Program-made: the position numbers and the translations under genes
NCBI GenBank assembly: GCA_900547775.1
Contig: URHW01000004.1
Coordinates: 4,806 to 68,805, forward strand
DNA length: 64,000 nt
Direction: 5' to 3'
From: an uncultured Mycoplasmatota bacterium
GTDB taxonomy: Bacteria > Bacillota_I > Bacilli_A > RF39 > UBA660
Part shown: piece by piece, positions 1,658 to 23,011 of the stretch
Numbering within the stretch: the stretch's first letter is position 1
Layout of the letters: each line of letters opens with the position of its first letter
Notes under the pieces: model-generated
Database searches by the model: none
The model's input: only the letters and a program-made list of their open reading frames with translations
Told to the model about the DNA's origin: nothing

Positions 1658-1685
1658 AATAAAAATATATTCCATAAAAAAAGAT

Positions 1686-1701
1686 GTATGACTAAACATA
1701 C
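1686..1701 (-). terminator. Hairpin plus T-run downstream of paralog-1 stop
   Basis: Inverted repeat gtatg-actaaa-catac, followed on the minus strand by a T-run. Confidence 0.4.
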
Positions 1702-5638: not shown

Positions 5639-7516
5639 CTATTTAACCTCTATATACTTATTAGTTTTATATGCTATATCATTCTCAACAATGAAAATGT
5701 AATACTTACCTGCTTTTAAATCAATAACAGTCTTATCAACCTTACTCTTATCTTTTTCTTTAATAGTATAAACAGCACCATCACTACTATCATTAATAAG
5801 TATCATCTTGGCTTCATCTATATCCATAAATAAAGCATTATTAGTAACAATATTATCACTATAACCAAAGTCTAAACTAATCTCATCACTAGCACTAGCA
5901 ATCTTACTAATAACATCACTAGTAATATCTTCTTTAGGACTAGCTTCTAATGTTGTATAACCTTTAACAGTAGTAAAATCAAAACTTACATCACCATTTA
6001 AATTAACCTTAGTAACAGAATAATAAGCACCCTTAATTCTAAGATTTAAAGTCTCCTTATTATTAGTAACCTCTAATAGTGCAGAAGATAAATTTCCATA
6101 TTCATGAATACTTCCACCCTTACTATAATCTACTCCATCAAGTTCTCTACCAAATAAGATAATATCTTTTCCATTACCAACAGTCTTTAAATCACCTAAA
6201 GCATAACTAAAATACTTCTTATTATCATTATAACTATTAGTAAGTGCTATTTTCTTATCAGTAATAGTATAAGTATTAACGCTAGAATATGAGCCCTTTA
6301 AATTACTTAAATCAGTCTCATTCTTAATAGTACTATAACCATTATCTAAAACCTTTAAAGTATCACCAGAAAGTTTAGCTTGATGCATTGCTTTTGGATA
6401 AACAAAACCATCATCACCCTTTAATAAATAACTATCAAATGTACTAGGTAAATTATCTGGATTAGTAAAGATCCAATTAATCTTAGAATCACTATAGTCT
6501 ATAGATACAACCATTTCTCCACCCCAGTAAGTTAATAATAATGTATCAGTATCTTCATAATACTCTATACCAGAGTTATAAAAGTAATCATCTCTTTCAA
6601 TACCATCAGTAAATGACTTATCAATACTTTCAAATAACTTATAAACATCTATTTGTTTAACTATCTTACCAGTATTCTTATCTATCTCAAGTACTAAATC
6701 AGATATTGTAATTCTATCAGCATTCTTACTAGTAACAATAATATTACCATTACTCTTAACAAAGAAATCATTTAAATATCCACTATCTATTGTATATTCA
6801 TTATAAATTCTTCCTAAATAGTCAATTTCGCGAATAACTGTAGGTAAACCACTAGTACTATCAGTATCAATACCAATAAGTAAATGTCCATTATCTAACA
6901 CTTTAATATTATGATAATAAGTATCATTAAGCATCCATCTAACATTACCATAACCATCTAACCCAAATGAATTCATACTAATTGGACTAGTAAGTAAATA
7001 TAAATCACCTGGAGTAGTAACATTACCACTTTTGGTAGTAACACTAGGAACTTCTACTTTATCAATCTTAATTTTAAATTCTTTAGTAATTTTATCACCC
7101 AACGTAACTACTACTGTATTTTCATAATCTGAATATAAACCATAAACAGGAATATAATGATAATTACTCTTACCATAATTTATTGTAAAATCATCATTAT
7201 TCTTTCCTTTAACAGTTACACTAACTTCCAGACTCTTATCTGTATAAAAGATAATCATTGCACTAAGAGGATTCGCATTATAAGGATTAACATAAACCTT
7301 AGCTCTATCTAAAGTATATTTATTCTTAACAAGTTCATCCTTTAAATAATTATCAACCTCAGCTTGTTCTTTACTACTTAAACTTTGACCAATAACTGTA
7401 TCACCATTAAGTAAATTCTCATGTGTCTTACCACTAAAATACTTAACTAATAATGCACCTACTATAACTACAATAAGTACACCTATTAAAATATAATTCT
7501 TTTTATTCTCCATCAT
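5639..7516 (-). CDS. Membrane-anchored extracellular protein, hypothetical (beta-rich; possibly arylsulfotransferase-like propeller)
   Basis: 625 aa with an N-terminal TM anchor (YILIGVLIVVIVGALLV). It is rich in Y/N/D/G/T. Any fold assignment is weak. Confidence 0.3.
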   Translation of the reverse strand: MMENKKNYILIGVLIVVIVGALLVKYFSGKTHENLLNGDTVIGQSLSSKEQAEVDNYLKDELVKNKYTLDRAKVYVNPYNANPLSAMIIFYTDKSLEVSVTVKGKNNDDFTINYGKSNYHYIPVYGLYSDYENTVVVTLGDKITKEFKIKIDKVEVPSVTTKSGNVTTPGDLYLLTSPISMNSFGLDGYGNVRWMLNDTYYHNIKVLDNGHLLIGIDTDSTSGLPTVIREIDYLGRIYNEYTIDSGYLNDFFVKSNGNIIVTSKNADRITISDLVLEIDKNTGKIVKQIDVYKLFESIDKSFTDGIERDDYFYNSGIEYYEDTDTLLLTYWGGEMVVSIDYSDSKINWIFTNPDNLPSTFDSYLLKGDDGFVYPKAMHQAKLSGDTLKVLDNGYSTIKNETDLSNLKGSYSSVNTYTITDKKIALTNSYNDNKKYFSYALGDLKTVGNGKDIILFGRELDGVDYSKGGSIHEYGNLSSALLEVTNNKETLNLRIKGAYYSVTKVNLNGDVSFDFTTVKGYTTLEASPKEDITSDVISKIASASDEISLDFGYSDNIVTNNALFMDIDEAKMILINDSSDGAVYTIKEKDKSKVDKTVIDLKAGKYYIFIVENDIAYKTNKYIEVK

Positions 7517-7521
7517 CTCAC

Positions 7522-9243
7522 CTACTTTACAATAAATGGATTACTACTAGTTCCATTTCCACCAATAATCTTAGCATTCTTAAGTTGTAATGTTGGTCTT
7601 ACTTTATTAGTATCAGTAACAACACTAGCAGTATCAGTACCACCACCATATGATTTATATGATCCACCAGTAGCAACTGCATAACTACTACTATTAACAT
7701 AATTATTATAAACATGAGCTTCCGGAGTACCATAGTTAAAGTTTGAAGTATCCATATTAAATCCAGTAATCTCAATTAACCAGAAATTCTTACCAGCATT
7801 ACTATTATTAGTTAAATAACTTCTATAACAATTATTACCATTACAATTAGCAACTTTACTATAATCATTCTTACTCATAAGAGCAACCTTAGTATTAAGT
7901 GATCCACCACCAAATACAGTACCAGAAATATATTGATTCTCTACATATCTAGGATTAACTGCACTATAGAAACTATTAACTACATTATCCATAGTATAAC
8001 TAAATGAACCATTCAAATTATGTCCACCTAATCCTTGATAATAATATCTTCCACCATTACAGCATCCACTATACTTACAAGCACCAACTTGTCCATAAAC
8101 TAAATCAGTTCTATTATTATAACTATAAGGATCATTAGCAATTATCTTAATACTATTACCTTTTCTATGATAAATTCTAAATACATAAGAATTATTATTA
8201 AACTTCAAATAATTACTTTCAACTTCACCTTTGTAATAACACTCATCACTCTTACCTGTTTCAGGTGTACAATCATTATTAATAAAATCAATCAAATTAT
8301 CACTAACAACATAATCTAAAGTAAATGGACTAGGAACAGAACCATCACTATTAGTCTTATTATAAGTAATTATTGCACTCTTACTACCAATTGGTTCAGT
8401 AACAAAACCTTTCATTGTAAAATCTGTAATATTATCTACAGGACTAGTAAATTCTTTCTTAGTACCATTCTTATAAGTAACAATTAATGTGACCTTAGTA
8501 TCCTTAGCCCCAAGAACTATCTTATTACCATTCTCATTTAAATAAGCCGTAAAACTATCAACATCAGTCTCACTAGCAGCAACATATACATTTCTAGTCT
8601 TACTAACACTCTTACCATTATAAGTATAAGTATAAACAACACTATAAGTACCAGCCTTAGTAACATCAACATTACAACTAGTAACCTTAATACTATCTCC
8701 CTTAACTAAAGGATAAGTCTTACTAGCATCATTTAAATCAGTTAATACTAACTTACCATACTTAGGATCACTACCATTTAAACCCTTAAACTCATTTTCT
8801 TCAGTACACCAATTACTACCACTAGCATCATAAGCTAAATAAATAGAATCAGCAACTAAATAAGTATTAGTTTCATCTGGTGGATTAAGTTCAAACTCTG
8901 TAGCACCAGTACCACCATTTAAAGTAACACGAACTATTTCATCATCTTTATACTTTTCGCTAGTTTCCTTATTAGTAATATCTTCACTAAGTAGTCCATT
9001 ACTCCTCAAATCACCAATAGTAATATCTACAAAATTATATCCTTCATATAGTTTCTCGATCTCACTCTTATTAGCACTAACATAAGCATCTGCTGCACTA
9101 AGTATCTGCTTAACTGTATCTTTATTATTCTCTTTAGGATCATTCTTACCAACCAAATTAACAATAAAAATACCAACAATAACTGCAATCAGTGCTATAA
9201 CCGCAATTATCTCTACTAATGTAAATCCTTTCTTATTCTTCAT
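7522..9243 (-). CDS. Prepilin-type N-terminal cleavage/methylation domain protein (large type IV pilin-like)
   Basis: N-terminus MKNKKGFTLVEIIAVIALIAVIV is a class III signal (G-F-T-L-V-E plus a hydrophobic helix). The C-terminal region is a 540-aa beta-rich segment. Confidence 0.75.
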   Translation of the reverse strand: MKNKKGFTLVEIIAVIALIAVIVGIFIVNLVGKNDPKENNKDTVKQILSAADAYVSANKSEIEKLYEGYNFVDITIGDLRSNGLLSEDITNKETSEKYKDDEIVRVTLNGGTGATEFELNPPDETNTYLVADSIYLAYDASGSNWCTEENEFKGLNGSDPKYGKLVLTDLNDASKTYPLVKGDSIKVTSCNVDVTKAGTYSVVYTYTYNGKSVSKTRNVYVAASETDVDSFTAYLNENGNKIVLGAKDTKVTLIVTYKNGTKKEFTSPVDNITDFTMKGFVTEPIGSKSAIITYNKTNSDGSVPSPFTLDYVVSDNLIDFINNDCTPETGKSDECYYKGEVESNYLKFNNNSYVFRIYHRKGNSIKIIANDPYSYNNRTDLVYGQVGACKYSGCCNGGRYYYQGLGGHNLNGSFSYTMDNVVNSFYSAVNPRYVENQYISGTVFGGGSLNTKVALMSKNDYSKVANCNGNNCYRSYLTNNSNAGKNFWLIEITGFNMDTSNFNYGTPEAHVYNNYVNSSSYAVATGGSYKSYGGGTDTASVVTDTNKVRPTLQLKNAKIIGGNGTSSNPFIVK

Positions 9244-9251
9244 AAATCCTC

Positions 9252-9818
9252 CTATTTAATTTCCAATATATTATCATGCACAGCACTTGACTTCTCATCA
9301 AAATATCCTAGCATGCTAACACTAAAATCATCAGTTAACCTTTTAAAAGAAATATAAACATTCCCCTTATCAAAATTAACACTTACTCCAGTGACATAAC
9401 CATCACTCACACTTAAATAACAATCATTAGCTTTGCCTTTAATAAACAAACTCTTCAAAAACTCCGGACTAGCTTCACATCTATACCCATCACCACTTTC
9501 ATCTATCTTAAACTTACTAACAATATCACCTAAATTAACATAACTAACATTAGTATCATATCTATAATAACCACCATCTAAAGCATAATACATTCCCTTA
9601 CTATCCATATAGACAGTTCCATCATCATAAATAACCCTACCAACACTCCCATCATAATCAAAACTCCTAGAATAACTATCACCATCATACATAATACCTA
9701 TCCTAGCACTATACTTATCATATACCTTAACACTATCACCCTTATTATAAAAAACAACAAAGATAACCAAACATATAACAACAAGTATACCTATCAAATA
9801 AATATATTTCTTTTTCAT
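9252..9818 (-). CDS. Membrane-anchored hypothetical protein
   Basis: Start chosen at MKKKYIYLIGILVV (TM anchor). The domain is Y/D/G-rich. Confidence 0.4.
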   Translation of the reverse strand: MKKKYIYLIGILVVICLVIFVVFYNKGDSVKVYDKYSARIGIMYDGDSYSRSFDYDGSVGRVIYDDGTVYMDSKGMYYALDGGYYRYDTNVSYVNLGDIVSKFKIDESGDGYRCEASPEFLKSLFIKGKANDCYLSVSDGYVTGVSVNFDKGNVYISFKRLTDDFSVSMLGYFDEKSSAVHDNILEIK

Positions 9819-9958
9819 AATCACCACCAATGTTGAAAACACGTACCAAAAACCTCTACTATTATTATTTATCTCTCTCGCCTGTCCGTTTGTCACTCGA
9901 AGGGTTTCTCAAAGGCTTTTGCGACTGACGATTTCGACCTTATAATTCTTTGCCCTGT

Positions 9959-11542
9959 TTACATACTTATTATGTACGGGGAACTACTGGTTCCTTCTCC
10001 GGTTACGTTGGTAGAGGGCTTAAGAGAAATCGAAGGGCGGACACCGGTGGTGCCATACACGTCGCCACTGCCGAAGCCGCCAAGGCTGCCGACAACGGCC
10101 CAAACGCGAGCGCTGTCACCACTGAAGCTGTAAGGAGACAAGGACCACCAATAATCACTAGTAGCATTTTCTTGTAAATATGTTGTAGAATTAACTAGAT
10201 TAAAAGCGTATCCAGCATATGCTAACTCATCTGCTGTTATTAAACCTATTTTTGAATTTATTTTACTTAGTTCTCCATTACATTTTAAACTAGGGCCCGT
10301 ACCTCCAGCACTTTCACTTGCGCTTACTAATCTTTGCGTAGCACCATAATATGTTTTATTTTTGCCATATCCAAAACCATTTGGTGCCATTCTCCATGGA
10401 TCAAATGTTGTATCTGTTACATTGGTTTTGTCATTGCACCATACAGTATCAGCTATTTTATCAGCATAATCTTTTAAATTATTTGTATACCAAGTTTCTA
10501 AATTAGTTAGTATTGTACTATTATTTGTATTTGCATGTGTAGCTTCATATGTACTAGAACCTGATGTTCCATACTTAAATCCTACATAAGCATTGTCATT
10601 CCAGTTTTCATTAAATTTACTTGTATATGTTGTACTAGAGTATCTTGCAAATGCTGCACTAGCACTATTATTAGCTGAATCACAAGGATTAGCTACTTTT
10701 GTAGTATTATCATTATGTAAGATAAGTTTTACTGAACCATCTCCACTAATTCTTACTATTCTCCAGCACTTATTAGCAAACTGTACATAGTTATTTGTTA
10801 CAGCTCCTCTAAAGTAGTATGATGTACCATTATTATCTTCTGCAGATGCAAGTAATGCTTCATCAGCAGTAGATACTGCTGCTCCTGGTTTAGTTATTGG
10901 AGCCTTAACTTCATTATTAGCTAATATAGTCTCTGCAAAAGTAGGTTCATCCGCAGCAACTATACTAACAACTATCTTACCTTTCCAAGTTTTATTTAAC
11001 CCTTGTTCATTAGTTGTTTCTGAATCTAACCAAAGTCTTAAATCAAAAGATTTTGCTTCTTTATTTTTAAGTCCTGTGGTTTTAAGTACATATCCTTGCG
11101 TATTAGTATCTACTTCCCCTAAAGAAAGTGTACTCAAGATTACTGAACTGCCATCATTAGTCCCTTTAGTTGATAAATTAGATTTAACATAATTATCTTT
11201 TAAATAAGCAGTGTTAGTACTAGTTCTATATTCACTAACTAGTGCTATAGTCACTTTTACATAACTATCACAATTATTAGTTAATGTAAAAGTAAATGGT
11301 GATTGTTTAAGTCCATCTTCATCACTAATTGGAAAAGCATCAGATAATACAATTTCACTTGTCTCTTCTGTTAAAGTGGTATTTAAACAAGTTCTTGTAC
11401 CAATAACATTACTATTAGTTTGAGTTTTAGTAATTCTATAATAAGCATAAGTTACTCCGATAAGTACTAATACAGTTACAAGTAACCCATATAAAATTGT
11501 TCTTTTCTTCTTTTCATTCTCTATAATATCCATTAGCCTCAC
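9959..11542 (-). CDS. Paralog 2 of the hypervariable surface protein family; putative DGR target
   Basis: Same N-domain and core as paralogs 1 and 3, without the roughly 100-aa central insertion. The C-terminal cassette at about 10030-10135 is GC-rich and NNC-codon-rich. Confidence 0.75.
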   Translation of the reverse strand: MRLMDIIENEKKKRTILYGLLVTVLVLIGVTYAYYRITKTQTNSNVIGTRTCLNTTLTEETSEIVLSDAFPISDEDGLKQSPFTFTLTNNCDSYVKVTIALVSEYRTSTNTAYLKDNYVKSNLSTKGTNDGSSVILSTLSLGEVDTNTQGYVLKTTGLKNKEAKSFDLRLWLDSETTNEQGLNKTWKGKIVVSIVAADEPTFAETILANNEVKAPITKPGAAVSTADEALLASAEDNNGTSYYFRGAVTNNYVQFANKCWRIVRISGDGSVKLILHNDNTTKVANPCDSANNSASAAFARYSSTTYTSKFNENWNDNAYVGFKYGTSGSSTYEATHANTNNSTILTNLETWYTNNLKDYADKIADTVWCNDKTNVTDTTFDPWRMAPNGFGYGKNKTYYGATQRLVSASESAGGTGPSLKCNGELSKINSKIGLITADELAYAGYAFNLVNSTTYLQENATSDYWWSLSPYSFSGDSARVWAVVGSLGGFGSGDVYGTTGVRPSISLKPSTNVTGEGTSSSPYIISM

Positions 11543-11780
11543 CTACTATAAACAATTATAAATGATAAGTATCTTTTAATCAAGGCTCTTTAATTTAATT
11601 TAATGAAAATTATAAAAAAAAGATAACTTCATGATATCAATAGTTATCTTACTTAAATCTTGCTTAAATCCTACTTAAATTAATTTTTATAATACATCTA
11701 ATTTCTTTATAATAATGAGTATTAAAACAATATTATAACTTTACCAAAAACCTACAAAATTATTTGACATTTACATTTAA

Positions 11781-11958
11781 AAGCAGCAAAAAACAGCAAA
11801 AAAGCAGCAAAAAAGCAGCAAAAAAACAGCAAAAAAACAGCAAAAAGCAGCAAAAAAGAAGCAAAAAACAGCAAAAAACAGCAAAAAGTAGCAAAAAAAC
11901 AGCAAAAAGCAGCAAAAAAACAGCAAAAAACAGCAAAAAAACAGCAAAAGTAGCAAAA
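11781..11958. repeat. Tandem A-tract repeat (about 16 units of cagcaaaaaa(c/g), 10-12 bp period)
   Basis: Direct reading. Phased A5-7 tracts lie between the stop of 11962-13632 and the promoter region of paralog 2. Confidence 0.9.
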
Positions 11959-11961
11959 CTA

Positions 11962-13632
11962 CTACTTCAATTTCCAACAAGAATGACCTGATTTATTATC
12001 ATGATAAATTTTTCCTTCTTTCTTCAATAAATCTAATAGATACCTAACTCGGCTTAGTTTAGTGCCTTCATCTAATGAATTAGGTAACTTATCTTTAAGT
12101 AAAGAAATAATTTCTTTTCTACTTGCTGAACCATATTCTTTTATATATTTAATTATTAGTTCCATATAAAACTCATTTTCTAATCCAGAATTATAAACAT
12201 ACTCTTCCTTCTTTTCTGTTAAGCTAGCAAGACTTGATGAAATATAAATGTTTGGATATCTTCCTTCAATTAAATGTTCTTTTTTTAGATAATCACTTTG
12301 CTCTTTACTTATCGTATATCTCTTTTGTAATCTATCAAGTAATATTATTGCACTAATATCTAAGTTAGTTCTTTCAAATAACAATCTACTATAATTTTCA
12401 TCAATTATTTTTCCATATAATGTTACAATAACTCGGTTAGAATTACTTAAATCATAATCAGGCATTGGAAAATATTTTTTCTTTTGAATATCATAAACTC
12501 GTTTAATTCCACTACCAACTGTATCTATCATATTCAAATTAACCATCGCACTTATTAAAAAAGGATTCCTATAATATGGAGAAGAATATCCATCTTTTAA
12601 AACGTTCTCAATTGTTTCCGGAATAAAACTGCCTTCATTTATGATCATCAATCTATCTGAATATTCAATTATATTAATGTTTCCATGAAGTCTGTAATCT
12701 TGATGAGCAATACAATTATTAATTAACTCACGAAGAATATAATTATCATACTTATCTACTTCATAAGGAAATAAAGTTGCATCACTAATCATGTATCTAT
12801 ACTTTAAATTTCTAATCTTAGATTTTATTTTATCAATATTAATAATAAAAGGTATTCCAAAATGTTCATAATCAATCACATTAAAATCATCATAAAGTTT
12901 CCACGTCATTCGTGGAATATATCCTTCCATCAAATAATCATAATCACTATTTCCTAAAAGCAACATACAAGCCATAGTTATCTTATTATTAATTGTTAAT
13001 CTTGCTTTATTTAAAAATTCAATATCAGTCAAATTATCAACTTCATCTATTAATTTATCATCTTTATGTTTAACTTTAAATTGTTCTCTAGCAACTTTAA
13101 TTGCACCTTTATCAAGATTATCTATTGTAGTTTCTTCAAGAACTTGTCTTGACCAATCATAATTTATAGTAGTTTTAATTTGTTCAATCTTATTTAGTGA
13201 TAAAGGAGATAATGATTCGCCTATTCTTCCATAAGGAAACCCTTTCCAATTAATTGGAGTTCCAGAGGCGGCTGGTACTTGAAACATTATCACTCTTTTA
13301 CCATTAACAACAATTGTATAAATTTCAATAAAACTTATATTATCCGTAGTATTATCAGAAATTTGTTTTTTCACCTTATTAAAATCATTATCTATGCAAT
13401 AATTAGTACTAGTTAACTCATGTGTTTTATCATCAACACCAAATATTATCCAAGAATAAAGTTTGTTTTTTAAATTAGCTTCATTAGCTAAAGCTGAGAA
13501 ATATTTTCCTAAGGTATCAACATCAAAATTATTCTTAGCTCTTTTAAACTCAACACATTCATTTTCAGAAACTTTTAATAGATTACTTAATATTACAAGT
13601 AGCTCCTCAGTTGTCTTATACAAACTTATCAC
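11962..13632 (-). CDS. AlbA_2 (Schlafen-like) plus HATPase_c_4-type putative transcriptional regulator
   Basis: 556 aa. The N-terminal divergent AAA-4/AlbA_2-like region (ECVEFKRAKNNFD) is followed by an ATPase-like region and a C-terminal wHTH-like tail. Confidence 0.5.
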   Translation of the reverse strand: MISLYKTTEELLVILSNLLKVSENECVEFKRAKNNFDVDTLGKYFSALANEANLKNKLYSWIIFGVDDKTHELTSTNYCIDNDFNKVKKQISDNTTDNISFIEIYTIVVNGKRVIMFQVPAASGTPINWKGFPYGRIGESLSPLSLNKIEQIKTTINYDWSRQVLEETTIDNLDKGAIKVAREQFKVKHKDDKLIDEVDNLTDIEFLNKARLTINNKITMACMLLLGNSDYDYLMEGYIPRMTWKLYDDFNVIDYEHFGIPFIINIDKIKSKIRNLKYRYMISDATLFPYEVDKYDNYILRELINNCIAHQDYRLHGNINIIEYSDRLMIINEGSFIPETIENVLKDGYSSPYYRNPFLISAMVNLNMIDTVGSGIKRVYDIQKKKYFPMPDYDLSNSNRVIVTLYGKIIDENYSRLLFERTNLDISAIILLDRLQKRYTISKEQSDYLKKEHLIEGRYPNIYISSSLASLTEKKEEYVYNSGLENEFYMELIIKYIKEYGSASRKEIISLLKDKLPNSLDEGTKLSRVRYLLDLLKKEGKIYHDNKSGHSCWKLK

Positions 13633-13737
13633 CTCTATTAGTTATTGTTGTAAGAACATCCCAGATTTCCTTTTTATTTTTTTAATAAAATAAAAAAAAT
13701 TTTTGATTAATACCCATATTAAAAGAACTCAAAGTTT

Positions 13738-16700
13738 TTAACTCTGAGTTCCATCATTTGTTTCTACTGTTATATCATAATCTGTATCATAATAGTAATT
13801 ACTAAATAAAACATTTGAATTATTAATAACTGTTCTTATACCTAAGTCTCCTCTACCATATATAGCGTTTCTTTCAATAGATTTAACACTATCAGTTAAA
13901 GTTATTGTCTTAAGTATAATATTATTCATAAGTGCATAACTACTAATATTTTCTGCATCTATTACATATTCTAACTTCTCATAATAACTAGGAACACTTA
14001 TTAAAGTCGTACCATCCTTATTAAACAATACTCCATCTCTGCTACTATAATTATTATTATCAGCACTAACTATAAATTTATTTATATTTAGGTTTATTCT
14101 TGATTCTATACTAGTAACAGAGCTTGGCACACTTAAACTCATCTTCTTATCATCAGCACTTACTAATCCATTTAATGAGTCATATATAATTCTCGTTGTT
14201 CCTTCTCTAATTTGTACATCTCCTTCAAGTTTATCAGGAACTAAAATAAGTGTATCCCCATTATATAATATATTATTTTCTACTTCTAAAGTACTTGCTT
14301 TTATTTCTTTAAAGTTAACTCCCCTAAATGGTGCTATACCTACATAAGCATTTCCTATATCAGCACTCTTACCCTTAAAGTTATAAAACGCATAATCTCC
14401 AATAGTTTGAACACTTCTAGGAATAACAATATCACCTAAACTACTATCTATAAAAGCATAATCTCTAATATATTCTAAGCCTTCATTAAATGTTATATTA
14501 CTTAAACTAGTATTTGTACTAAAAGCATACTGCTCAATAGTTCTAACCGAACTTCCTATAGTAACACTAGTAAGACCTAAATTATTAGCAAATGCTCTCT
14601 TACCAATCTTTTCACTATTAACATTAAGCATCTTTAAACTAGTACTTTCAAAGGCCGATGTTCCAATAGATTTAACACTTGATGGAATATTAATATTAGT
14701 AATACCAGTTCCATAAAATGCATTATTACCAATACTACTAACATTATTCCCAATAACAATATTATTAATTTGGCTCGCATAATTATCCCAAGGAGCGCTT
14801 ATAAAATCTTGCATATCTCCGGTTCCATACACGCTTAATGTATAACCATTACTTCCATCTATCACTTTGTTACTATATAAAAATGCGATTACATCTTCTT
14901 TATTATTCTTACCGATCTTATAATAATTCACATATTCATGCTCTGCACTTACTATCTCACTAGTAGTACGCTTTTGATTAACTAAGCCATATATATCTCT
15001 AACTGCACCATCACTTAAAGTTAATGTAAATAGTCCATAATAATTATTTGCTTTTACCACTACTTCAAATCGGTATCCATTAGTAATATCTTTAACCTTA
15101 GTAACACTATCAACTAAAACACCATTACTAGCACTAATCATACCCTTATCAAGAGATGCACTAGCAAGTCCTCCACCAATATCCGTACATTCCAAATACG
15201 CCTTACCAGTTCCATAAATATCACTTGGTACATCAGTAAACATACAACTAGGTGCTGGATTATCTGCAATAGCATAATAAGTAGTTCCTTTATTTCTACT
15301 ATTAATTGTAACTGTACTTCCAATATTTTTAATGTTTCCACCACTAGGACTTGTACTCCATCCCTTTTTAGTTATTCCATCTGGAACACTAAAGTCAGGT
15401 AATGTAACTGTGCATCCTGAACCTAACCTACTTTCTGTACAAGTAAGTGTTGTCTCACCAAGAGTTCCATAAGTTCCCCCATTTAAATTAATTTGAAATA
15501 CATTAGTAACATATATAGGTATTCTAAGTTCTCCACAATCTGCACCTTTAATAACTAAATATGTAGTTCCAGTTCTGTATGATCTTATCTTTATCTTATC
15601 AGTAAACACCTTATTAATATTATCAGGTTCATATGAGAAATTACTTTGTGATACCACATTAACACTTGCTGTCCAACTATTACTAACACTATAACTAAGT
15701 TTGCCAGTAGCAGCATAACTAATTGTAATCTCTGCACTTTCCCTATTAACACCTAAAGTAATTGAATTTAGATTACTTTTTAAAGAATAAACATTATAAT
15801 CAAGTTCAGCAAGTCTATTACCATTATTTTCTCTTAAGTAAATAACTGCTTTACCCGTATTAGTTCTTCCTAACTTATAAGGAAGACTACTATCATACTG
15901 CGTACTAGTAACATTATGTCTTACTAATGACATCTGTCCATATCTTCCACCATTATTGGCACAATTATTACTTAAACTAATCGCTGGCTGACTAGGATTA
16001 TTACCTAAATCTACTAAATAATAATCAGTCATACTATCAAACACTATATTATTCTTCGTACTATCACAAGTCTTACCACTACTATCTAATACTCCCAAAT
16101 TAATCCCATGAATTGTAATGGTATTATTACTAAGATCAGAACCAACCTCTTTACACACTTTAGTAACCGTATTATTATTCTCTCTAAAATATAAACTTGT
16201 CTTATAAATAACTGGTATAAATATATCTAATGAGCCATCTCTTACACTCTTAACATTAACTTTAAAATCTTCTACATTATCATAAATATCTTCACCATTA
16301 GTGGTCTCTAAAATAACTGTATCATTTTCTATATGACAATTTAAATAATCAGTATTTTCTTCATATCCACCATAAGTACTTTTCTTATAAACAGTGCAAG
16401 TAAAATCATTACTAGAGCTTCCGTTTATCTTAGACTTAAACTGTGTCTTATCATTATTTTGTCTTCTTCCCCCATTAAAATATAAATATTCTGGTATATC
16501 TGTATTATCTAATTTAATATTTGAAACATTAACCTCAAAACTAGTTTCACCACAAATTGATCCTTTTATTCTAATGGTAACAGTTCCAATACTATTTCCT
16601 TTTATATAAAAGTAATTCTGATTATTTAAAGTTATTGTACTTCCAAATGAACTATTATTTGCTGATATACTAGCAGCACTACTATCAACTGATACAGTAA

Positions 16701-17769
16701 TTCTTCCTGTACCACCAGCCTTAAGTTCTACTCTCTTAGCAGCCTCACCTACAATAACATTCGTAATATGCGTTACTACATCTAAATCATAAACTTCTCT
16801 AGTTATAACCTTACTAATACCTGCATGATCTTCAGTTATCGTAAAACTTTTCTCACCTGTACTAGTACCACTATTCATATATAGAACGTCTCCCTTTATA
16901 GTAGCATTCAAATCATCACTAATCCCACTAAGAGAAAACTCGCCATAATTCTTCCCCGTAATCCTAAAAAGTTCATTAGTAAGTGTTTTCATACACATCT
17001 TAGGTGTATATCCATCTATATCATAATTAACAACATACACCCCTAAATTCATATGTCGATATAACTTCTTTTCTGCTCCTTCATCATCTCTGTATGTACC
17101 AGTTACTTGTACTTGATAATTTCCATCACTTCCAGTACCATTATCATTTAAAGTAATAACTAAATCATCACCAACAACTTTACAACTAAATGGACCTGTC
17201 GCTTCACATGTAATACTTTTAAAAGTTCCTTTAGTATAAATCTTAGTTTTAAATTCCTCATGAAGTCCCCAATAAAAATCTTTCTTTGTAGTTCCTAAAT
17301 TAAGTGAATAATTACCATCAACTGCTGGACATGAATAATTCTTATTTTTTATATCATAAAAAGTAGCACTTATCGTTACTGTAGATGGATCATAACATAA
17401 AAGAACATTACCACTGAGTCTTCCACCAGTAACTGGATTGCCAACATAACTAGCATCATCTTTAGTAGTATCATACTCTAAATAACCTAGACCTACTAAA
17501 TCATCAACACTTATTATGCACTCATCATACGCATCATCATTAATAACTCCAGATTCTAACCCATTAGTACACTTCTGATAAGTATTAATATTATCTTCAC
17601 CATACTTAGAAGCACTAGTTTCAATAGTACTAATCTTAGAATTTAAAATACTCTCTTTTGTATTTTTTGAAATATTAGTAACCGCTGGTATCAAAATAAC
17701 CATAATAATTGCAAGTATTGTAATAACTGCAAGAAGTTCCACCATTGTAAAACCCTTATGGTTCTTCAT
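13738..17769 (-). CDS. Giant prepilin-type N-terminal domain protein with Ig-like middle region and C-terminal BspA-type leucine-rich repeats
   Basis: N-terminus MKNHKGFTMVELLAVITILAIIMV is a class III signal. The C-terminal 350 aa carry repeated IPSSV.SIG..AF LRR_5-like units. Confidence 0.75.
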   Translation of the reverse strand: MKNHKGFTMVELLAVITILAIIMVILIPAVTNISKNTKESILNSKISTIETSASKYGEDNINTYQKCTNGLESGVINDDAYDECIISVDDLVGLGYLEYDTTKDDASYVGNPVTGGRLSGNVLLCYDPSTVTISATFYDIKNKNYSCPAVDGNYSLNLGTTKKDFYWGLHEEFKTKIYTKGTFKSITCEATGPFSCKVVGDDLVITLNDNGTGSDGNYQVQVTGTYRDDEGAEKKLYRHMNLGVYVVNYDIDGYTPKMCMKTLTNELFRITGKNYGEFSLSGISDDLNATIKGDVLYMNSGTSTGEKSFTITEDHAGISKVITREVYDLDVVTHITNVIVGEAAKRVELKAGGTGRITVSVDSSAASISANNSSFGSTITLNNQNYFYIKGNSIGTVTIRIKGSICGETSFEVNVSNIKLDNTDIPEYLYFNGGRRQNNDKTQFKSKINGSSSNDFTCTVYKKSTYGGYEENTDYLNCHIENDTVILETTNGEDIYDNVEDFKVNVKSVRDGSLDIFIPVIYKTSLYFRENNNTVTKVCKEVGSDLSNNTITIHGINLGVLDSSGKTCDSTKNNIVFDSMTDYYLVDLGNNPSQPAISLSNNCANNGGRYGQMSLVRHNVTSTQYDSSLPYKLGRTNTGKAVIYLRENNGNRLAELDYNVYSLKSNLNSITLGVNRESAEITISYAATGKLSYSVSNSWTASVNVVSQSNFSYEPDNINKVFTDKIKIRSYRTGTTYLVIKGADCGELRIPIYVTNVFQINLNGGTYGTLGETTLTCTESRLGSGCTVTLPDFSVPDGITKKGWSTSPSGGNIKNIGSTVTINSRNKGTTYYAIADNPAPSCMFTDVPSDIYGTGKAYLECTDIGGGLASASLDKGMISASNGVLVDSVTKVKDITNGYRFEVVVKANNYYGLFTLTLSDGAVRDIYGLVNQKRTTSEIVSAEHEYVNYYKIGKNNKEDVIAFLYSNKVIDGSNGYTLSVYGTGDMQDFISAPWDNYASQINNIVIGNNVSSIGNNAFYGTGITNINIPSSVKSIGTSAFESTSLKMLNVNSEKIGKRAFANNLGLTSVTIGSSVRTIEQYAFSTNTSLSNITFNEGLEYIRDYAFIDSSLGDIVIPRSVQTIGDYAFYNFKGKSADIGNAYVGIAPFRGVNFKEIKASTLEVENNILYNGDTLILVPDKLEGDVQIREGTTRIIYDSLNGLVSADDKKMSLSVPSSVTSIESRINLNINKFIVSADNNNYSSRDGVLFNKDGTTLISVPSYYEKLEYVIDAENISSYALMNNIILKTITLTDSVKSIERNAIYGRGDLGIRTVINNSNVLFSNYYYDTDYDITVETNDGTQS

Positions 17770-17779
17770 AAAATCACCT

Positions 17780-18316
17780 CTATTCTGCTATCTTAAAATA
17801 AATATTAGATGTAAAATCATTTCCATTAGAAGCAAGCATTTTAACCCTTAACTCCCTAAGACTAGTATTTTCAAACTCCTTATAATTAACAAAATCATTC
17901 TCATCTATTATTGCTCCATCAGGAACTTTACGCACAAAATTACGTGTCCTCTCATCACTAGTTAAATTATTATTAACATATTCATATTTAATATATCTTG
18001 CATCATCAGTTAATGATAACTTCTTTACAATAAGTTCATTTAAATTACCTTCCCTAAAAGCATTAAAAGTAATTGTAACACTTTTCTTCCCATCTAAACT
18101 CACACTCTTGACTCCATATCTATTAATATCCGTACTAATCGTATCAATTAAAATGGTATCTAATACTTCAAAATCAACTTCTAACTTACTCTTCTTATAT
18201 AACCCATTAACTGTAATTAATAATCTTGTAATAAAAATAAGAATAATTGACACAAGCACAATAGATACAATAATCTCAACAAGAGTCATCCCCTTCTTAT
18301 TCATCACTATCACCAA
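17780..18316 (-). CDS. Pseudopilin (prepilin-type N-terminal domain)
   Basis: N-terminus KKGMTLVEIIVSIVLVSIILIF. It overlaps the upstream gene by 20 nt. Confidence 0.7.
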   Translation of the reverse strand: MVIVMNKKGMTLVEIIVSIVLVSIILIFITRLLITVNGLYKKSKLEVDFEVLDTILIDTISTDINRYGVKSVSLDGKKSVTITFNAFREGNLNELIVKKLSLTDDARYIKYEYVNNNLTSDERTRNFVRKVPDGAIIDENDFVNYKEFENTSLRELRVKMLASNGNDFTSNIYFKIAE

Positions 18317-18806
18317 ACCTTAATGAAGCATACTGATAAATAGTCGGATTATTATTATAATTATTCTCATCTACATACATAACAATAATTCTATAACCAC
18401 TTTCCTTAGTTGGATCTAACTTCTTTATATAATTCTGTGTAGTAGCCTCTAAATCAGATAACTCCCCACTATTAATATCACTAGTAAACCACTTAGTAAA
18501 ATAAATAGAATTTATTCTCATATTAGTAACTAATGATTTAAAATAAGTATCACCCTTACCTAAACAATCACTATTACCCTGACAATAAATATACACACTA
18601 GAGCCATCATAACCATTAAACCCACTATCTTCAAAATACTCTTTAACTAAATTAGTCTTATAAATATATTCTGTATTATCATAATAACTCTTTCTTTGTA
18701 CAGCACTAATAACATTCATATAACCACCATAAAGCATAATTAAAAGCACACACAAAACAAGAATAACTACAATTGTCTCTACTAAAACAAAACCCTTATT
18801 CTTCAT
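18297..18806 (-). CDS. Pseudopilin (prepilin-type N-terminal domain)
   Basis: N-terminus MKNKGFVLVETIVVILVLCVLLIM. Confidence 0.7.
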   Translation of the reverse strand: MKNKGFVLVETIVVILVLCVLLIMLYGGYMNVISAVQRKSYYDNTEYIYKTNLVKEYFEDSGFNGYDGSSVYIYCQGNSDCLGKGDTYFKSLVTNMRINSIYFTKWFTSDINSGELSDLEATTQNYIKKLDPTKESGYRIIVMYVDENNYNNNPTIYQYASLRFGDSDE

Positions 18807-18814
18807 AATACCTC

Positions 18815-19735
18815 CTAATCATGCTTAAAACTAATATTACACTTACTAGCATGCCCATTATTCTTATACTTAAATAAATACTTAGTATTACTTTCATTAG
18901 TAATTGGACTAATCTCATAATCATTATAATTACAACTTACTTCATCTAATTCATAACCCGCATAAGGAACAATCGTAAAAGAAATCTCATCATCATCTAT
19001 AAAATCCTTTGTAATAAATGAAACTGTACCATCAAAATAATCTATATTATTATCAAGCCACTCTAAACTAACAATATCATTATAAGCGTAAGTAATATCC
19101 ATAAGTAATAAATTAGTATAATAAGTTCTATTAGTGTTATAAGTACTCTGTTTACCAACAATCATATAACTAAGAGTTTCACTACCAGTTAAATCAACTA
19201 TTTTAGAAACACTCTTCCAACCATCATTATTAGAAGTACTAATAACCCTACTACTATCTATAACATCACCACTCACTGTATTAGAAACAAACACATCACT
19301 GGTATAACCAATACTAGGTTGATAATATTCCATACGAATATAATATTTATGAGTAGAATCTACACTTATTGGCTGAGATAAATTACCACTTGATCCCGTC
19401 TTAATAACACACCTCTTACCAAAATCTGCAACCTGAAAATTACCATTATTTTGAATACTCCAATCAGTAAGATTATTATTAGCATCAACACTATTAAAAT
19501 TACCATTACGCACTAAATTAGTAATACTCTTTCCACCATCAACACTAGCATAAGAAACATATAAACTTATACTACCACTACCATCATTAAGTTTCTCTCG
19601 AATCTCACCATTATATCTATCCAAAATAGTCTTATTTGCAATATAATTACTCAAAAGAGCCGTCAAAATAGCAATAAAAGCAAGAAAAAAAGTATAAATC
19701 AAACTAGTAGCAATAAACCCACTCTCATTCTTCAT
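18815..19735 (-). CDS. Pilin-like protein (atypical prepilin N-terminus)
   Basis: N-terminus MKNESGFIATSLIYTFFLAFIAIL is followed by a beta-rich domain. It is the first gene of the pilin operon. Confidence 0.5.
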   Translation of the reverse strand: MKNESGFIATSLIYTFFLAFIAILTALLSNYIANKTILDRYNGEIREKLNDGSGSISLYVSYASVDGGKSITNLVRNGNFNSVDANNNLTDWSIQNNGNFQVADFGKRCVIKTGSSGNLSQPISVDSTHKYYIRMEYYQPSIGYTSDVFVSNTVSGDVIDSSRVISTSNNDGWKSVSKIVDLTGSETLSYMIVGKQSTYNTNRTYYTNLLLMDITYAYNDIVSLEWLDNNIDYFDGTVSFITKDFIDDDEISFTIVPYAGYELDEVSCNYNDYEISPITNESNTKYLFKYKNNGHASKCNISFKHD

Positions 19736-19790
19736 AACACCAGCCCTATTCTCTTTAAATTATAACATTATCTTAAAAGAAAAAAAAGCC

Positions 19791-19805
19791 CTAACTAAAA
19801 GTTAG
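19791..19805 (-). terminator. Rho-independent terminator after paralog 3
   Basis: Hairpin ctaact-aaaa-gttag, followed on the minus strand by a T-run of 8 or more. Confidence 0.5.
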
Positions 19806-19815
19806 AACTCTATAA

Positions 19816-21687
19816 TTAATTTATAATATAAGGATTATCACTCGTACCATTACCAGTTACGCTGGTCGAAGATATAAGAGAAATGGCCGGGCGAACACCA
19901 GTGTCGCCGTCAATGTTGCCGTCGCGCAAGTCACCCGAGCGCACGCCCCGATCGAGAGTGATGATGCTATCGAAGTAGCTAGGCGACAAGGACCACCACC
20001 AATTCGTCCCAGTATTTTCTTGTAAATATGTAGAACGATTATAATAACCAGATACCGACCCAGCAAATGCTATTTCATCTGCAGTTAATAATCCTATTTT
20101 ATAAGTTAAGTTACCATTACCATTCTTTGTATCATCAACAGTAAATTTAGATAATTTTCCACCATTATTATCATTTGGACATTTTAATGTTGGCTGTTTA
20201 GTGGAATCCAATCTATTATATGCAGCATAATTTGTATACTCTGTCCCATAACCTAATCCTCCACTTACTGTACTTTTATCATTACACCAAATTGTATCAG
20301 CTAGTTTATCTTCATATGGTGCTAAATTTTTTGTATACCATATCTCCAAATTTTTTAGTATTGTACTTTTATTTGTATTTGCATGTGTACTTGCATAATC
20401 ACTTGCTCCAGCAGTACCATACATAAATCCTACATAAGCATTATCATTATGGTTTGTATTAAATGCACTTTTATATGTTTCACCAGAGTATCTTGCAAAT
20501 GCTGCATTAGTACTATTATTTGCTGATGAACAAGGATTAGCTACTTTTGTAGTATTATCATTATGAAGAACAAGTTTTACTGAACCATCGCCTGTTATTC
20601 TTACTATTCTCCAGCATTTATTAGCAAATTGTACATAATTATTTTTTACTGCCCCTCTAAAGTAGTAAGATGTTCCATAATCATCTTCTGTACTAGCAAG
20701 TAATGCTTCTGTTGTATTTTTATTTGATGTTATTTGTTTGTACGTAAAACTGCTTGATGTAGCGCTTACTACATAATATATACTGCTTAAATTAGTGGTT
20801 GTTGTCATTGATCCTGCAGTACTTGAACCAGAACTTGATAAAGAACTATATGGCAAATATTTTCCAACTAAGCTTGAATATGAATTAGCATATGTATCAC
20901 TTGTTACTGCAGTACCAGTTAAATTAAAGTTTGTCCCATTTGCTTCGTATCCAGTACCATAAGTTATATAATATGCTTGAGATGTTGATAATACACTTGT
21001 TGACTGACTTTCAACATCATCTTTAGTATGAGCATTTACTTCTTTTCCTGGTGTTGTAAGTGGTGATTTTATCTCGTTATTTGCAAGTATTGCATCTTTC
21101 AATGTAACCTCTTCATTAGCAGCTACTCCAACAACGACTATCTTACCTTCCCAGTTCTTATTAAGTCCATCTGCAATAGATGTTTCACCATCCATCCATA
21201 CTCTTAAATCGTAACTTTTCTCTTCATTTGCTTTAAGTCCAGTAGTTACTAAAATATAACCTTTATTTGTGCCTTCCAATTCAGTTAAAGTCTGACTTCC
21301 AAGAAGCACGGAAGAGCCATCAGTCGTTCCTTTGCTAGATAAATTAACTTTTAAAAAACTATCCTTTAAGTATGCTACATCAGTACTTGTTCTATACTTA
21401 CTATCAATCGTAATATACACTTTAACATAACTATCACAATTATTTTTTAAAGTGAATGTAAATGGTGTTTGTTTAAGACCATCTTCATCACTTATCGGAA
21501 AAGCATCACTTAAAGTTATTTTAGATGTTTCTTCAGTAAGCGTTGCATCTAAACAAGTTCTAGTTCCAATAACATTACTATTAGTTTGCGTTAATTTCAA
21601 TCTAAACCAAGCATAACTTACACCCATAAAAACAACTAAAGTTATAAGTAATCCATAATAAATTTTTATTTTCTTTTTATCTTCCAT
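19816..21687 (-). CDS. Paralog 3 of the hypervariable surface protein family; putative DGR target
   Basis: Full-length architecture like paralog 1. The C-terminal cassette at about 19890-19985 is GC-rich and NNC-rich. Confidence 0.75.
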   Translation of the reverse strand: MEDKKKIKIYYGLLITLVVFMGVSYAWFRLKLTQTNSNVIGTRTCLDATLTEETSKITLSDAFPISDEDGLKQTPFTFTLKNNCDSYVKVYITIDSKYRTSTDVAYLKDSFLKVNLSSKGTTDGSSVLLGSQTLTELEGTNKGYILVTTGLKANEEKSYDLRVWMDGETSIADGLNKNWEGKIVVVGVAANEEVTLKDAILANNEIKSPLTTPGKEVNAHTKDDVESQSTSVLSTSQAYYITYGTGYEANGTNFNLTGTAVTSDTYANSYSSLVGKYLPYSSLSSSGSSTAGSMTTTTNLSSIYYVVSATSSSFTYKQITSNKNTTEALLASTEDDYGTSYYFRGAVKNNYVQFANKCWRIVRITGDGSVKLVLHNDNTTKVANPCSSANNSTNAAFARYSGETYKSAFNTNHNDNAYVGFMYGTAGASDYASTHANTNKSTILKNLEIWYTKNLAPYEDKLADTIWCNDKSTVSGGLGYGTEYTNYAAYNRLDSTKQPTLKCPNDNNGGKLSKFTVDDTKNGNGNLTYKIGLLTADEIAFAGSVSGYYNRSTYLQENTGTNWWWSLSPSYFDSIITLDRGVRSGDLRDGNIDGDTGVRPAISLISSTSVTGNGTSDNPYIIN

Positions 21688-21694
21688 ATTTCAC

Positions 21695-23011
21695 CTACTT
21701 ACTCTTAATTAATGGACTAGTCACAGTTGTCCTAACCATAATATCATTTCCATTCTCATCAACCTTTTCATTCTCTATCGGTTTACTAGAATCATAATAA
21801 GAAAGTACCATTTTTGGATATGCAAGTGATGTATCTCCATTAACATCAAATAAATTAATCCAAGAAGTATCATTTGCTTCCAATACCTCATTTAAAGATA
21901 AACCTCTATCCTGTGAAAACTCACTTAACTTACTCTTAGCACTAGTAGTTCCCCAATTATATGCACAAAGTGCTGCTGGTACATTATAATCCATATTAAC
22001 CAAACAATTCTGAAAATACATACAAGCAATCTTTATATTAGTATCAAGTTCTCTAATATTACTATCAGTAACATGAAAAGTCTCCCAAGAAGAAGTATCA
22101 AAATTATACGCTTTAACATCCTGATTTACCCAAACGGCATACTGCATTTGCATAAGACCTACTCCACCGCCTGGATCAATCTCTGTACTATGTACTCCCT
22201 TTTCTTGTGTTGCTATCGCCATTATCAAATCTTTATCTATTCCATAAGTTTTAGCATACTTGCTAACTAACTCATAATAATTTTCTTTTGCATTAACTGC
22301 TTTCTCATCGCTAGTTCTATCACTAAAATCAATATTAAAATTCTGATAAATAGTGTCTTTTTCTTCCACTAACTGTGCAAGTAACTCTCCATTAGTTGGT
22401 TCCTTATTTTCTGCTTCTTCTACATCTAATAAACTTATCATCTGCGTATCCATTAAAAGTTTATCATATCCTGGATCTTTTTCCTCTGTACTCGGCTGCG
22501 CACTTATCTCTTGATCCTCAGTTTCATTTAAATATTTTTCCACACTATCATGATTAACTTCTTCCATCCAAGTTGCACTAACACTAGGAGTAAAAGGATC
22601 CTCAAACTCTTTAAGTTTATGACCAATACTTAAAACAGATACCATAATAAGAAGAACCATAAGTCCCTTAGTAATTGTCCCAGTCTTAGATACCCTTTTA
22701 GCTTTCCTACTACCATTCATATACTTACTAGCCCTACTAGCATTATACTTATCTACTTTTTTTCTAGCATCTACTCTTTCAAATACCTGCTTATAATCCT
22801 TAATAAAAATAACTCTATCAGAATAAACAACTCTTATAACCTTTCCATCTTTACTAATTCTAGCATCAGTAGCATTTCTTCTTTCTACTTCATTTAAAAA
22901 TTTCTTCGCTTCATCACCAAAAAAGATATTACTATAAGAACTATCAGTATAACTATTATAATACTTAGTCGTTAATCTATTTCTATCACAGCAAACAACT
23001 ATTTTGTCCAT
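21695..23011 (-). CDS. Membrane-anchored lytic transglycosylase (SLT domain)
   Basis: An N-terminal cytoplasmic region and a TM segment (LMVLLIMVSVL) are present. The SLT motifs are E...GLMQMQ, AYN.G. Confidence 0.7.
   Translation of the reverse strand: MDKIVVCCDRNRLTTKYYNSYTDSSYSNIFFGDEAKKFLNEVERRNATDARISKDGKVIRVVYSDRVIFIKDYKQVFERVDARKKVDKYNASRASKYMNGSRKAKRVSKTGTITKGLMVLLIMVSVLSIGHKLKEFEDPFTPSVSATWMEEVNHDSVEKYLNETEDQEISAQPSTEEKDPGYDKLLMDTQMISLLDVEEAENKEPTNGELLAQLVEEKDTIYQNFNIDFSDRTSDEKAVNAKENYYELVSKYAKTYGIDKDLIMAIATQEKGVHSTEIDPGGGVGLMQMQYAVWVNQDVKAYNFDTSSWETFHVTDSNIRELDTNIKIACMYFQNCLVNMDYNVPAALCAYNWGTTSAKSKLSEFSQDRGLSLNEVLEANDTSWINLFDVNGDTSLAYPKMVLSYYDSSKPIENEKVDENGNDIMVRTTVTSPLIKSK

Follow-up and report, generated by a model that had tools for sequence, protein, structure and literature searches.

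Tip complexes of minor pilins are the closest described relatives of the locus reported here. In the HIJK tip complex, the K subunit is bulky and lacks Glu5, and in the PilABC tip complex of S. sanguinis, PilA lacks Glu5 and PilB and PilC carry adhesive heads (Shahin et al. 2023, PMC9934059). Modular pilins were defined by Raynaud et al. (2021, PMC8179133), who found 264 architectures, and such pilins have been proposed to be adhesins exposed at the pilus tip (PMC8179133). Our literature search found nothing specific on type IV pili in RF39-like lineages. The locus lies in a 64-kb stretch of DNA from an uncultured bacterium of this kind (contig URHW01000004.1; hereafter the window, meaning the whole stretch of 64,000 nucleotides), which is a low-GC piece of chromosome (about 30%) with almost every gene on the minus strand. 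Four consecutive minus-strand genes at 19735-13738 encode pilin-like proteins, and the last of them is a 1343-aa protein that ends in leucine-rich repeats (LRRs). An earlier note, made from the sequence of the window, had proposed that an adhesin is displayed at a pilus tip. This is still the best reading in view of the modular-pilin architecture, the conservation of the gene cassette, and the presence of a bulky subunit without Glu5. We consider it probable that the block encodes a minor-pilin complex located at the tip of a type IV pilus, where it shows the LRR adhesin and probably further heads of a lectin-like kind; PilC and PilD would come from an unlinked site.

The six minus-strand open reading frames (ORFs) that had been listed for 23011-13738 were all recovered: an SLT-domain gene, a member of a variable family (paralog 3), and genes of 306, 169, 178 and 1343 aa. 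The N-termini quoted for the last four (GFIATSLIY, KGFVLVETIVV, KGMTLVEIIV and KGFTMVELLAV) were correct. A six-frame translation of the window was scanned with a PilFind-like class III pattern, G[FM]xxxE followed by 20/21 hydrophobic residues. Exactly four matches were found, each at the N-terminus of a gene: three in the 19735-13738 block and one in a 573-aa pilin at 7522-9243. Since these were the only matches in the window and all lay at gene starts, chance is an implausible source of the pilin leaders. The profile searches used cutoffs of 21.2 bits for PF07963 (N_methyl) and 16.3 bits for TIGR02532. The 1343-aa protein (29.5 bits) and the 178-aa ORF (23.7 bits) exceeded the first and also passed the second; the 169-aa protein was below the first (15.9 bits) and above the second (17.4 bits), with a weak ComGF-like match in addition. 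The 306-aa protein matched neither. Its leader ends in Gly-Phe and has Ser instead of Glu at position +5, and because Glu5 is missing and no pilin HMM recognizes the protein, we call this leader degenerate. Thus, of the four class III leaders that had been claimed, three are canonical (G, then F/M-x-x-x-E) but the 306-aa one is not.

The subunits of the block, with the predicted cut after Gly marked by a slash, are a 306-aa protein (18815-19735, minus strand, MKNESG/FIATSLIY), a 169-aa minor pilin (18297-18806, minus strand, MKNKG/FVLVE), a 174-aa minor pilin (17780-18304, minus strand, MNKKG/MTLVE) and the 1343-aa protein. The third is the 178-aa ORF above, which is the longest frame and begins with TTG at 18316; gene callers chose the ATG at 18304. 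The 20-nt overlap reported for two of the pilin-like genes holds for the longest frame only and shrinks to 8 nt with the ATG.

The 1343-aa protein combines a pilin N-terminus, Ig-like domains and LRRs, as had been described, and its parts can be delimited. The pilin module (aa 1 to ~145; 17335-17769, minus strand) has the leader MKNHKG/FTMVE, an alpha-1 helix and a small beta sheet. It is followed by a stalk of about 7-8 all-beta Ig-like domains (aa ~146-985; 14815-17334, minus strand) and a BspA-type LRR head (aa ~986-1343; 13738-14814, minus strand). The head, the last ~360 residues, matched PF13306 (LRR_5) in three stretches with 197.2 bits against a cutoff of 27.7 (E 1e-58). The AF2 model of residues 1-1000, with a mean pLDDT of 72 and low confidence at aa 557-632, places a helix at residues 9-72 and a small sheet ahead of the ~7-8 all-beta domains, and Foldseek matched the modelled stalk to the Ig arrays of titin, contactin and DSCAM and to the S-layer proteins SbsB/SbsC. 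Full-length homologues fell into 14 clusters, with identities from 98% down to 26%. Between species the head was more conserved than the stalk (94 vs 84%, 71 vs 68% and 46 vs 41%). In the pilin module, G6, F7, T8 and E11 were invariant among 11 homologues; the module is 39% identical to a 155-aa pilin of a relative and 34% identical to a 163-aa pilin encoded beside pilC-pilD, most likely in the window's own species.

These data bear on whether the N-termini are pilin leaders at all. They could instead be ordinary Sec signals or membrane anchors of unrelated surface proteins, as might be suspected from the 306-aa protein, which the pilin HMMs do not recognize, and from a window that holds no machinery genes. 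We regard this as highly improbable given the matches above curated cutoffs, the invariant G-F-T-x-x-E, the homology to pilins beside pilC-pilD, and a prepilin peptidase gene that is adjacent to the cassette in a relative.

With its N_methyl and LRR_5 domains and its Ig-like stalk, the 1343-aa protein fits the definition of a modular pilin given by Raynaud et al. (2021). The fusion of a pilin to LRRs had been called unusual; in Dataset S1 of that study (PMC8179133), however, the IPR012902-IPR026906 pair is the seventh commonest modular-pilin architecture, with 18 proteins and six more that have two LRR regions. IPR026906 stands for the LRR region of BspA type, to which that study assigns "no clear function" (PMC8179133). 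The present protein shares the same pair of domains with these catalogued proteins, which were listed and none of which was studied. It differs from them in belonging to a narrow family with a long Ig-like stalk and a defined, conserved cassette. The design principle of a modular pilin, and of pilin plus BspA-type LRR, has therefore already been described, and the present cassette is a further example. It extends the idea to a subunit that is very large and has a long Ig-like stalk, and what stands out is its size, its stalk and its cassette context in an uncultured gut clade with small genomes, where the ATPase has still not been found. The LRR_5 head is also found in the BspA and LrrG (HupY) adhesins, and the protein gave a partial match to the HupY/LrrG model. 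In contrast to the present protein, those adhesins rely on Sec signals and on anchors in the wall or membrane instead of a pilin module, and the score here was 59 vs 1250 bits for the equivalog.

The 306-aa protein is a candidate cap (K-type) subunit of the tip complex. Among its orthologues, the first 37 residues are nearly invariant, and overall identity is merely 34-44%. When its alignment was used in a scan of related genomes (one genome per species), the N-terminal module KGFIATSLIY(S/T)FFL proved almost invariant across 74 loci, which came from metagenome-assembled genomes of gut Bacilli/Tenericutes (human, mouse, rabbit and ruminant), Coprobacillus sp. CAG:605 and Mycoplasma sp. CAG:956. 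The C-terminal parts fused to this module were very diverse and ranged from 62 to 435 aa. One of them had a match to a ConA-like lectin that was just below the cutoff (E 9e-6), and another a CBM_4_9-like match (E 2e-3). In the window's protein, the part after the helix is jelly-roll or carbohydrate-binding module (CBM)-like. A PDB profile search with the 306-aa alignment found nothing significant, only weak, consistent CBM-like signals (E 0.03-0.6), and the CBM_4_9 match in an orthologue was faint. The cassette provides a cap-type pilin without Glu5 whose head is exchanged between species.

A lone gene for a pilin-like protein of about 270 aa, with GFIATSLIY and without Glu5, was also observed in some relatives (for example at 4446-5255 of L058, with similar genes in L049, L051, L056 and L062). 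It lies ~1.5-4 kb downstream of tyrS in L056, L058, L079 and L085, and the window has the same neighbourhood. The head of this protein ends in IRPVIEVxxG. A likeness of the IRPVIEV-ending cap-pilin heads (L049-L062) to DUF6273 was not established, with an hhalign probability of 6%.

The gene set is conserved and reaches beyond the range given in the earlier note, with a second modular pilin and further genes at 5639-9896. The second modular pilin (573 aa; 7522-9243, minus strand; MKNKKG/FTLVE, cut predicted after G) matched PF07963 with 27.1 bits and contains an Ig-like region. At its C-terminus, ~130 residues share homology with the end part of the DUF6273-like domain of the variable paralogs (hhalign 96%, E 2e-9), and its orthologues come after the LRR pilin in other species. 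Just upstream of it is a gene for a 214-aa membrane-anchored protein that is conserved in the cassette (9252-9896, minus strand). The conserved last gene of the cassette encodes a membrane-anchored, arylsulfotransferase-like protein (ASST; 5639-7516, minus strand; PF05935 and PF17425). About 14 genome assemblies, represented by about 18 contigs (L025-L042), preserve the order 306-169-174, and the LRR pilin is present at about 11 of these loci. This block is often followed by a 573-like pilin and ASST, and some genomes have two cassettes. The 169-aa pilin has orthologues with 58% identity in L005 and 47% in L007. Between strains, the pilin proteins are 97-99.7% identical, which argues that they are under constraint. 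ASST is the last cassette gene in L005, L026, L031, L034, L036 and L042; a PilY1-like accessory role for it beside the pilins is pure speculation.

As had been noted, no assembly ATPase, platform protein or prepilin peptidase is encoded in the window. Domain searches of its 50 ORFs of at least 100 aa found no T2SSE, T2SSF or Peptidase_A24, and tblastn of the window with PilC and PilD was negative, as were motif scans. Among related sequences, PilC and PilD were found in the same species or a very close relative, but the ATPase was not. In a relative whose LRR pilin is 42% identical (L004/L005), the genes run pilC (552 aa), pilD (252 aa), a 155-aa pilin, then proteins of 302, 171 and 184 aa and a 1355-aa LRR pilin, with short gaps; this PilD has A24_N_bact and Peptidase_A24 domains. 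In L005, the LRR pilin is followed by four paralogs, a 210-aa gene, a 606-aa pilin and ASST. An NCBI contig of 1,137,987 bp encodes UKI28420.1, a fragment that clusters at 90% with the 573-aa pilin of the window, which places the contig in the window's species or a very close relative. The same contig carries the PilC fragments UKI29148.1 and UKI29149.1. In that species, pilD directly follows pilC, and pilC, pilD and the gene for the 163-aa pilin stand isolated between housekeeping genes with the pilin island apart from them; the link is to the same species or a close relative, in an assembly other than that of the window. Since related sequences supply PilC and PilD, the argument that the machinery is absent fails for the peptidase and the platform. 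The PilC of the clade (547-553 aa) matched GspF over its full length (E 1e-82), better than ComGB, although below equivalog cutoffs. It has an unusual N-terminal extension of ~145 aa with a hydrophobic segment (genes at 5043-6701 of L004/L005 and 5219-6862 of L010).

In distant relatives that do not have the adhesin cassette (L014-L019), pilC-pilD is directly followed by Peptidase_S11 and Gate genes, and the same two genes close the island on the left side of the window (21-1699). This position suggests that the cassette first entered between pilD/pilA and S11 and was later separated from pilC-pilD in the window's species.

Several results weigh against a tip complex on a type IV pilus. The 306-aa protein escapes every pilin HMM searched. 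Scans of the window and of 98 related loci (L001-L098) turned up no ATPase of the PilB/ComGA type, so the filament would be extended with no identified motor. No ATPase gene stood beside pilC-pilD-pilin in any species examined, and neither PilM/N/O nor PilT was seen near pilC. The pilins showed no significant similarity to GspH/I/J/K or ComGD-GG, all NCBIfam equivalog cutoffs being missed. The number of terminator-like hairpins in the region (two) was not above the 1.6 expected from shuffled sequence. Looser Walker-A matches near pilin-like genes in L064, L071, L074 and L087 were rejected as FtsK and an ABC transporter.

The missing motor is one ground for supposing that there is no filament. 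The PilD-cleaved proteins would then stay anchored in the membrane by their alpha-1 helices, and the 1343-aa protein would be a fibrillar adhesin with a wall-spanning stalk. The island is indeed physically apart from pilC/pilD in this species, and a stalk of ~8 Ig-like domains could presumably cross a Gram-positive wall. However, four co-linear, conserved pilin-like genes, one of them without Glu5, would be pointless for simple anchoring; a PilC platform and a short major pilin have been kept and are conserved; and in the relative, pilC, pilD and the pilin gene share an operon-like array with the cassette. We therefore find this rather unlikely.

Another possible explanation is a Com-type pseudopilus, with pilC-pilD-pilA and the four genes as equivalents of ComGB-ComC-ComGC-GD/GE/GF/GG that serve mainly DNA uptake; the LRR protein would be an addition. 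Among NCBIfam models, the pilin N-termini indeed came closest, if weakly, to ComGC, ComGE, ComGF and ComGD. Neither PilM/N/O nor PilT was seen near pilC, which makes for a minimal-looking machinery, and a set of four minor pilins with one lacking Glu5 resembles ComGD-GG. Competence genes are also often kept by gut lineages with small genomes (PMC12306168). Yet every Com equivalog cutoff was missed widely (31.2 vs 75 bits for ComGC, 20.5 vs 80 for ComGF and 18 vs 70 for ComGD), and the PilC is nearer to full-length GspF/PilC than to ComGB. ComGC has a size of about 100 aa, and the major pilin of the clade, at 155-163 aa, is longer. Three bulky heads of lectin or LRR type also suit adhesion better than DNA capture, some genomes have two cassettes, and we consider a role in DNA uptake unlikely.

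For a tip complex on a type IV pilus, the following sequence of events can be proposed. The four genes at 19735-13738 would be transcribed together and supply the minor pilins for a type IV pilus in a Bacilli lineage of the human gut that has a small genome and is "Clostridium sp. CAG:533"-like. The unlinked PilD, encoded with PilC and the 163-aa major pilin elsewhere, would cut the short leaders after Gly. The four processed subunits would join through their hydrophobic alpha-1 helices, and the complex would prime the filament and remain at its tip. The bulky 306-aa subunit without Glu5 may sit on top, like GspK/PilX or S. sanguinis PilA, with the 169- and 174-aa subunits as small connectors. 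The pilin module of the 1343-aa subunit would be embedded in the filament, and its Ig-like stalk of ~7-8 domains would hold the LRR head tens of nanometres off, where the head may bind a host or microbial ligand. The 573-aa modular pilin of the same island would provide another head.

This proposal can be set against the two described tip complexes. As in S. sanguinis PilA-PilB-PilC (PMC8179133, PMC9934059), the host is a monoderm, the minor pilins are encoded in an operon, one of them lacks Glu5, and a tip complex is proposed; adhesive heads are grafted on pilin modules in both, there vWA and a ConA-like lectin and here LRR, CBM-like and DUF6273-like domains. Unlike PilABC, the present block has four genes instead of three, its Glu5-less subunit is itself bulky, and its adhesin head stands on a stalk of ~7-8 Ig-like domains rather than a short loop. 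Its genes also lie apart from the assembly machinery, no PilF/PilT-type ATPase was identified, and there is no detectable homology to PilABC beyond the N-terminal motif. The likeness to HIJK (GspH-I-J-K/FimU-PilV-W-X) is at the level of gene content only, with four co-encoded minor pilins and a bulky candidate cap without Glu5; priming of assembly and presentation of an effector at the tip would be expected in both. In contrast to HIJK, the K-like gene comes first here, and the proteins share no significant sequence similarity with that set, only weak N-terminal matches. One member here is a 1343-aa adhesin, whereas diderm type IV pili use a separate non-pilin adhesin, PilY1.

The earlier note had drawn the operon as headed by the lytic transglycosylase, and the ends of the transcription units do not agree with this. 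An extended -10-like element, TGTTATAAT (19759-19767, minus strand), precedes the start codon of the 306-aa gene by 24 nt and may act as its promoter. A terminator-like hairpin with a T-run (19785-19811, minus strand) immediately follows the stop codon of paralog 3, and a second terminator-like hairpin (13724-13752, minus strand) closes the 1343-aa gene. On the minus strand, the best promoter-like site (23283-23255) is upstream of a DUF1292 gene that precedes the SLT gene. With a promoter-like site in front of the pilin block and terminator-like hairpins on either side of it, SLT and paralog 3 appear to belong to a separate unit, and from these motifs DUF1292-SLT-paralog 3 on the one hand and the four pilin genes on the other look like two units. 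The SLT gene (21695-23011, minus strand) encodes a membrane-anchored lytic transglycosylase (PF01464, 41.5 bits against a cutoff of 21.3). It accompanies the cassette in the window's species and two close species (L025, L026) only. In the other cassette-bearing genomes, the cassette is preceded by pilC-pilD-pilin or other genes, and SLT was rejected as a conserved cassette member on this synteny (missing in L005/L027/L028 and L029-L042). It is a neighbour gene that may have an accessory role in crossing the cell wall.

A single operon, in which SLT opens the wall for the pilus and paralog 3 is a pilus-associated receptor-binding partner, would account for the position of SLT upstream of the cassette in those three species (it abuts the 306-aa gene in L025), for the paralogs that follow the LRR pilin in L005 with gaps of 12-82 nt, and for the C-terminal end that the 573-aa pilin shares with the DUF6273-like domain of the paralogs. 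The hairpin and promoter-like site that separate paralog 3 from the 306-aa gene, and the cassettes that do not include SLT, speak against it, as do the family members at 47756-49045 and from 63240 onwards, which are unlinked to pilins. Also, the N-termini of the paralogs are not prepilin-like, since Gly is not conserved: it is Ser in paralog 1, and G12 is not among the columns with at least 90% conservation. They had been considered as degenerate prepilins and were rejected on this ground. An invariant S-Y-A/W site, with the cut predicted after A, fits cleavage by signal peptidase I or a SipW-type enzyme. In sum, we consider a single operon quite improbable.

Paralog 3 (623 aa; 19816-21687, minus strand) has a Sec/SipW-like signal, an N-terminal beta-sandwich that may be of a TasA-like or bundling-pilus kind, and a DUF6273-related C-terminal domain, and it has no Pfam match, DUF6273 included. 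Its AF2 model had a mean pLDDT of 45, and Foldseek found nothing at E <=0.001; a PDB profile search with the paralog alignment also gave nothing significant. The window holds at least five copies of this DUF6273-like family, two of them far from the pilin genes. The others near the pilins are paralog 2 (527 aa, or 524 from ATG; 9959-11542, minus strand) and paralog 1 (624 aa; 1704-3578, minus strand). Among housekeeping genes are a 429-aa copy (47756-49045), which has a different, lipoprotein/Sec-like N-terminus, and a copy that begins at 63240 and runs off the window end (ORF 63240-63995, DUF6273 27.9 bits against a cutoff of 23.5). A specific coupling of paralog 3 to the pilins, as had been hinted, is not borne out by these unlinked copies; linkage is frequent and not exclusive. 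A search with the family gave 6615 matches, and the best 120 were mostly in singleton 90% clusters. Of 55 close family members, 22 matched DUF6273 with E values of at most 1, the best being 2.6e-5. DUF6273 has been described as a C-type-lectin-like receptor-binding domain with a C-terminal variable region that is a target of diversity-generating retroelements (DGRs) in gut phages (PMC10743442; bioRxiv 10.1101/2024.10.15.618418).

The claim that the upstream paralog is hypervariable was borne out. Between conspecific contigs and the window, flanking genes had 97-99.8% protein identity, compared with 72-80% for paralog 3 and 57-86% for paralog 2. Variation is spread over the whole protein and peaks at aa 561-600, near the C-terminus. 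As in the DUF6273 tentaclins of gut phages, which are Mtd-like (PMC10743442), the hot spot is at the end of the C-terminal domain. In contrast to the phage proteins, these are chromosomal multi-copy cellular genes, and the window has no reverse transcriptase or template repeat. A DGR was rejected as the source of the variability since no RVT domain was found in the window ORFs and no template-like non-coding near-copy of the 3' ends was present; nor were the clustered differences described below adenine-specific. For these reasons, recombination between family copies is the more likely source. Contig L002 differs from the window by six substitutions in 24 kb, all within 36 bp of paralog 3 (20388-20423), which change FMYGTAGASDYASTH to FKYGTVGTSDYASAH and cause four amino-acid changes. 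No donor copy for them was found in the window, and the differences suggest micro gene conversion by a donor located elsewhere, or an artefact of assembly from mixed strains. With a hypervariable DUF6273-like family beside nearly invariant pilins, the locus clearly shows surface proteins diversifying at strain level.

A more speculative possibility, and a rather improbable one, is that the tip is a multi-headed platform of exchangeable adhesins. Swapped cap heads (CBM-like, ConA-like and others), the giant LRR pilin and the pilin with a DUF6273-like end would be displayed together, the paralogs would be secreted partners that load onto the tip or compete with it, and the whole apparatus would fasten the cell to a host surface or another bacterium on which it depends. 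Bolder still is the idea that this filament is assembled without a linked or canonical PilB-type ATPase. With respect to a tip-located minor-pilin complex, the LRR, CBM-like and DUF6273-like heads on pilin modules are concrete candidates for the surface attachment of this lineage and could be used in ligand screens or in capture-based enrichment of these uncultured bacteria. The host lineage is prevalent in human guts, and the 90% clusters of these proteins contain hundreds to more than 1400 metagenomic copies.

The island contains other genes as well. A defence-like pair, RloB and an AAA_21 ATPase (3646-5492), lies inside it and is missing from strain L020, and another defence-like gene, for a Schlafen/AlbA_2 and HATPase_c_4 protein, is also inserted (11962-13632). 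The pilin island is a hot spot of strain-level change in gene content. A tandem array at 11779-11949 comes right after the Schlafen-like gene, ~240 nt before paralog 2, with ~16 copies of a 10-11-bp unit (minus strand, TTGCTG[C/T]TTTT[T]). Its copy number varies by strain, with 14-15 regular-expression matches in the window and L020 and six in L022/L023, while the remaining intergenic sequence is conserved. The array might tune the expression of the variable surface protein. Finally, sporulation and germination genes (CoatF, GerA/GerAC and CotZ) are present in the lineage (38288-38620 of the window; 28-2485 of L005; 8557-9006 of L010), and the largest contigs are only ~1.1-1.2 Mb, which together suggest that the host is a spore-forming bacterium with a reduced genome.

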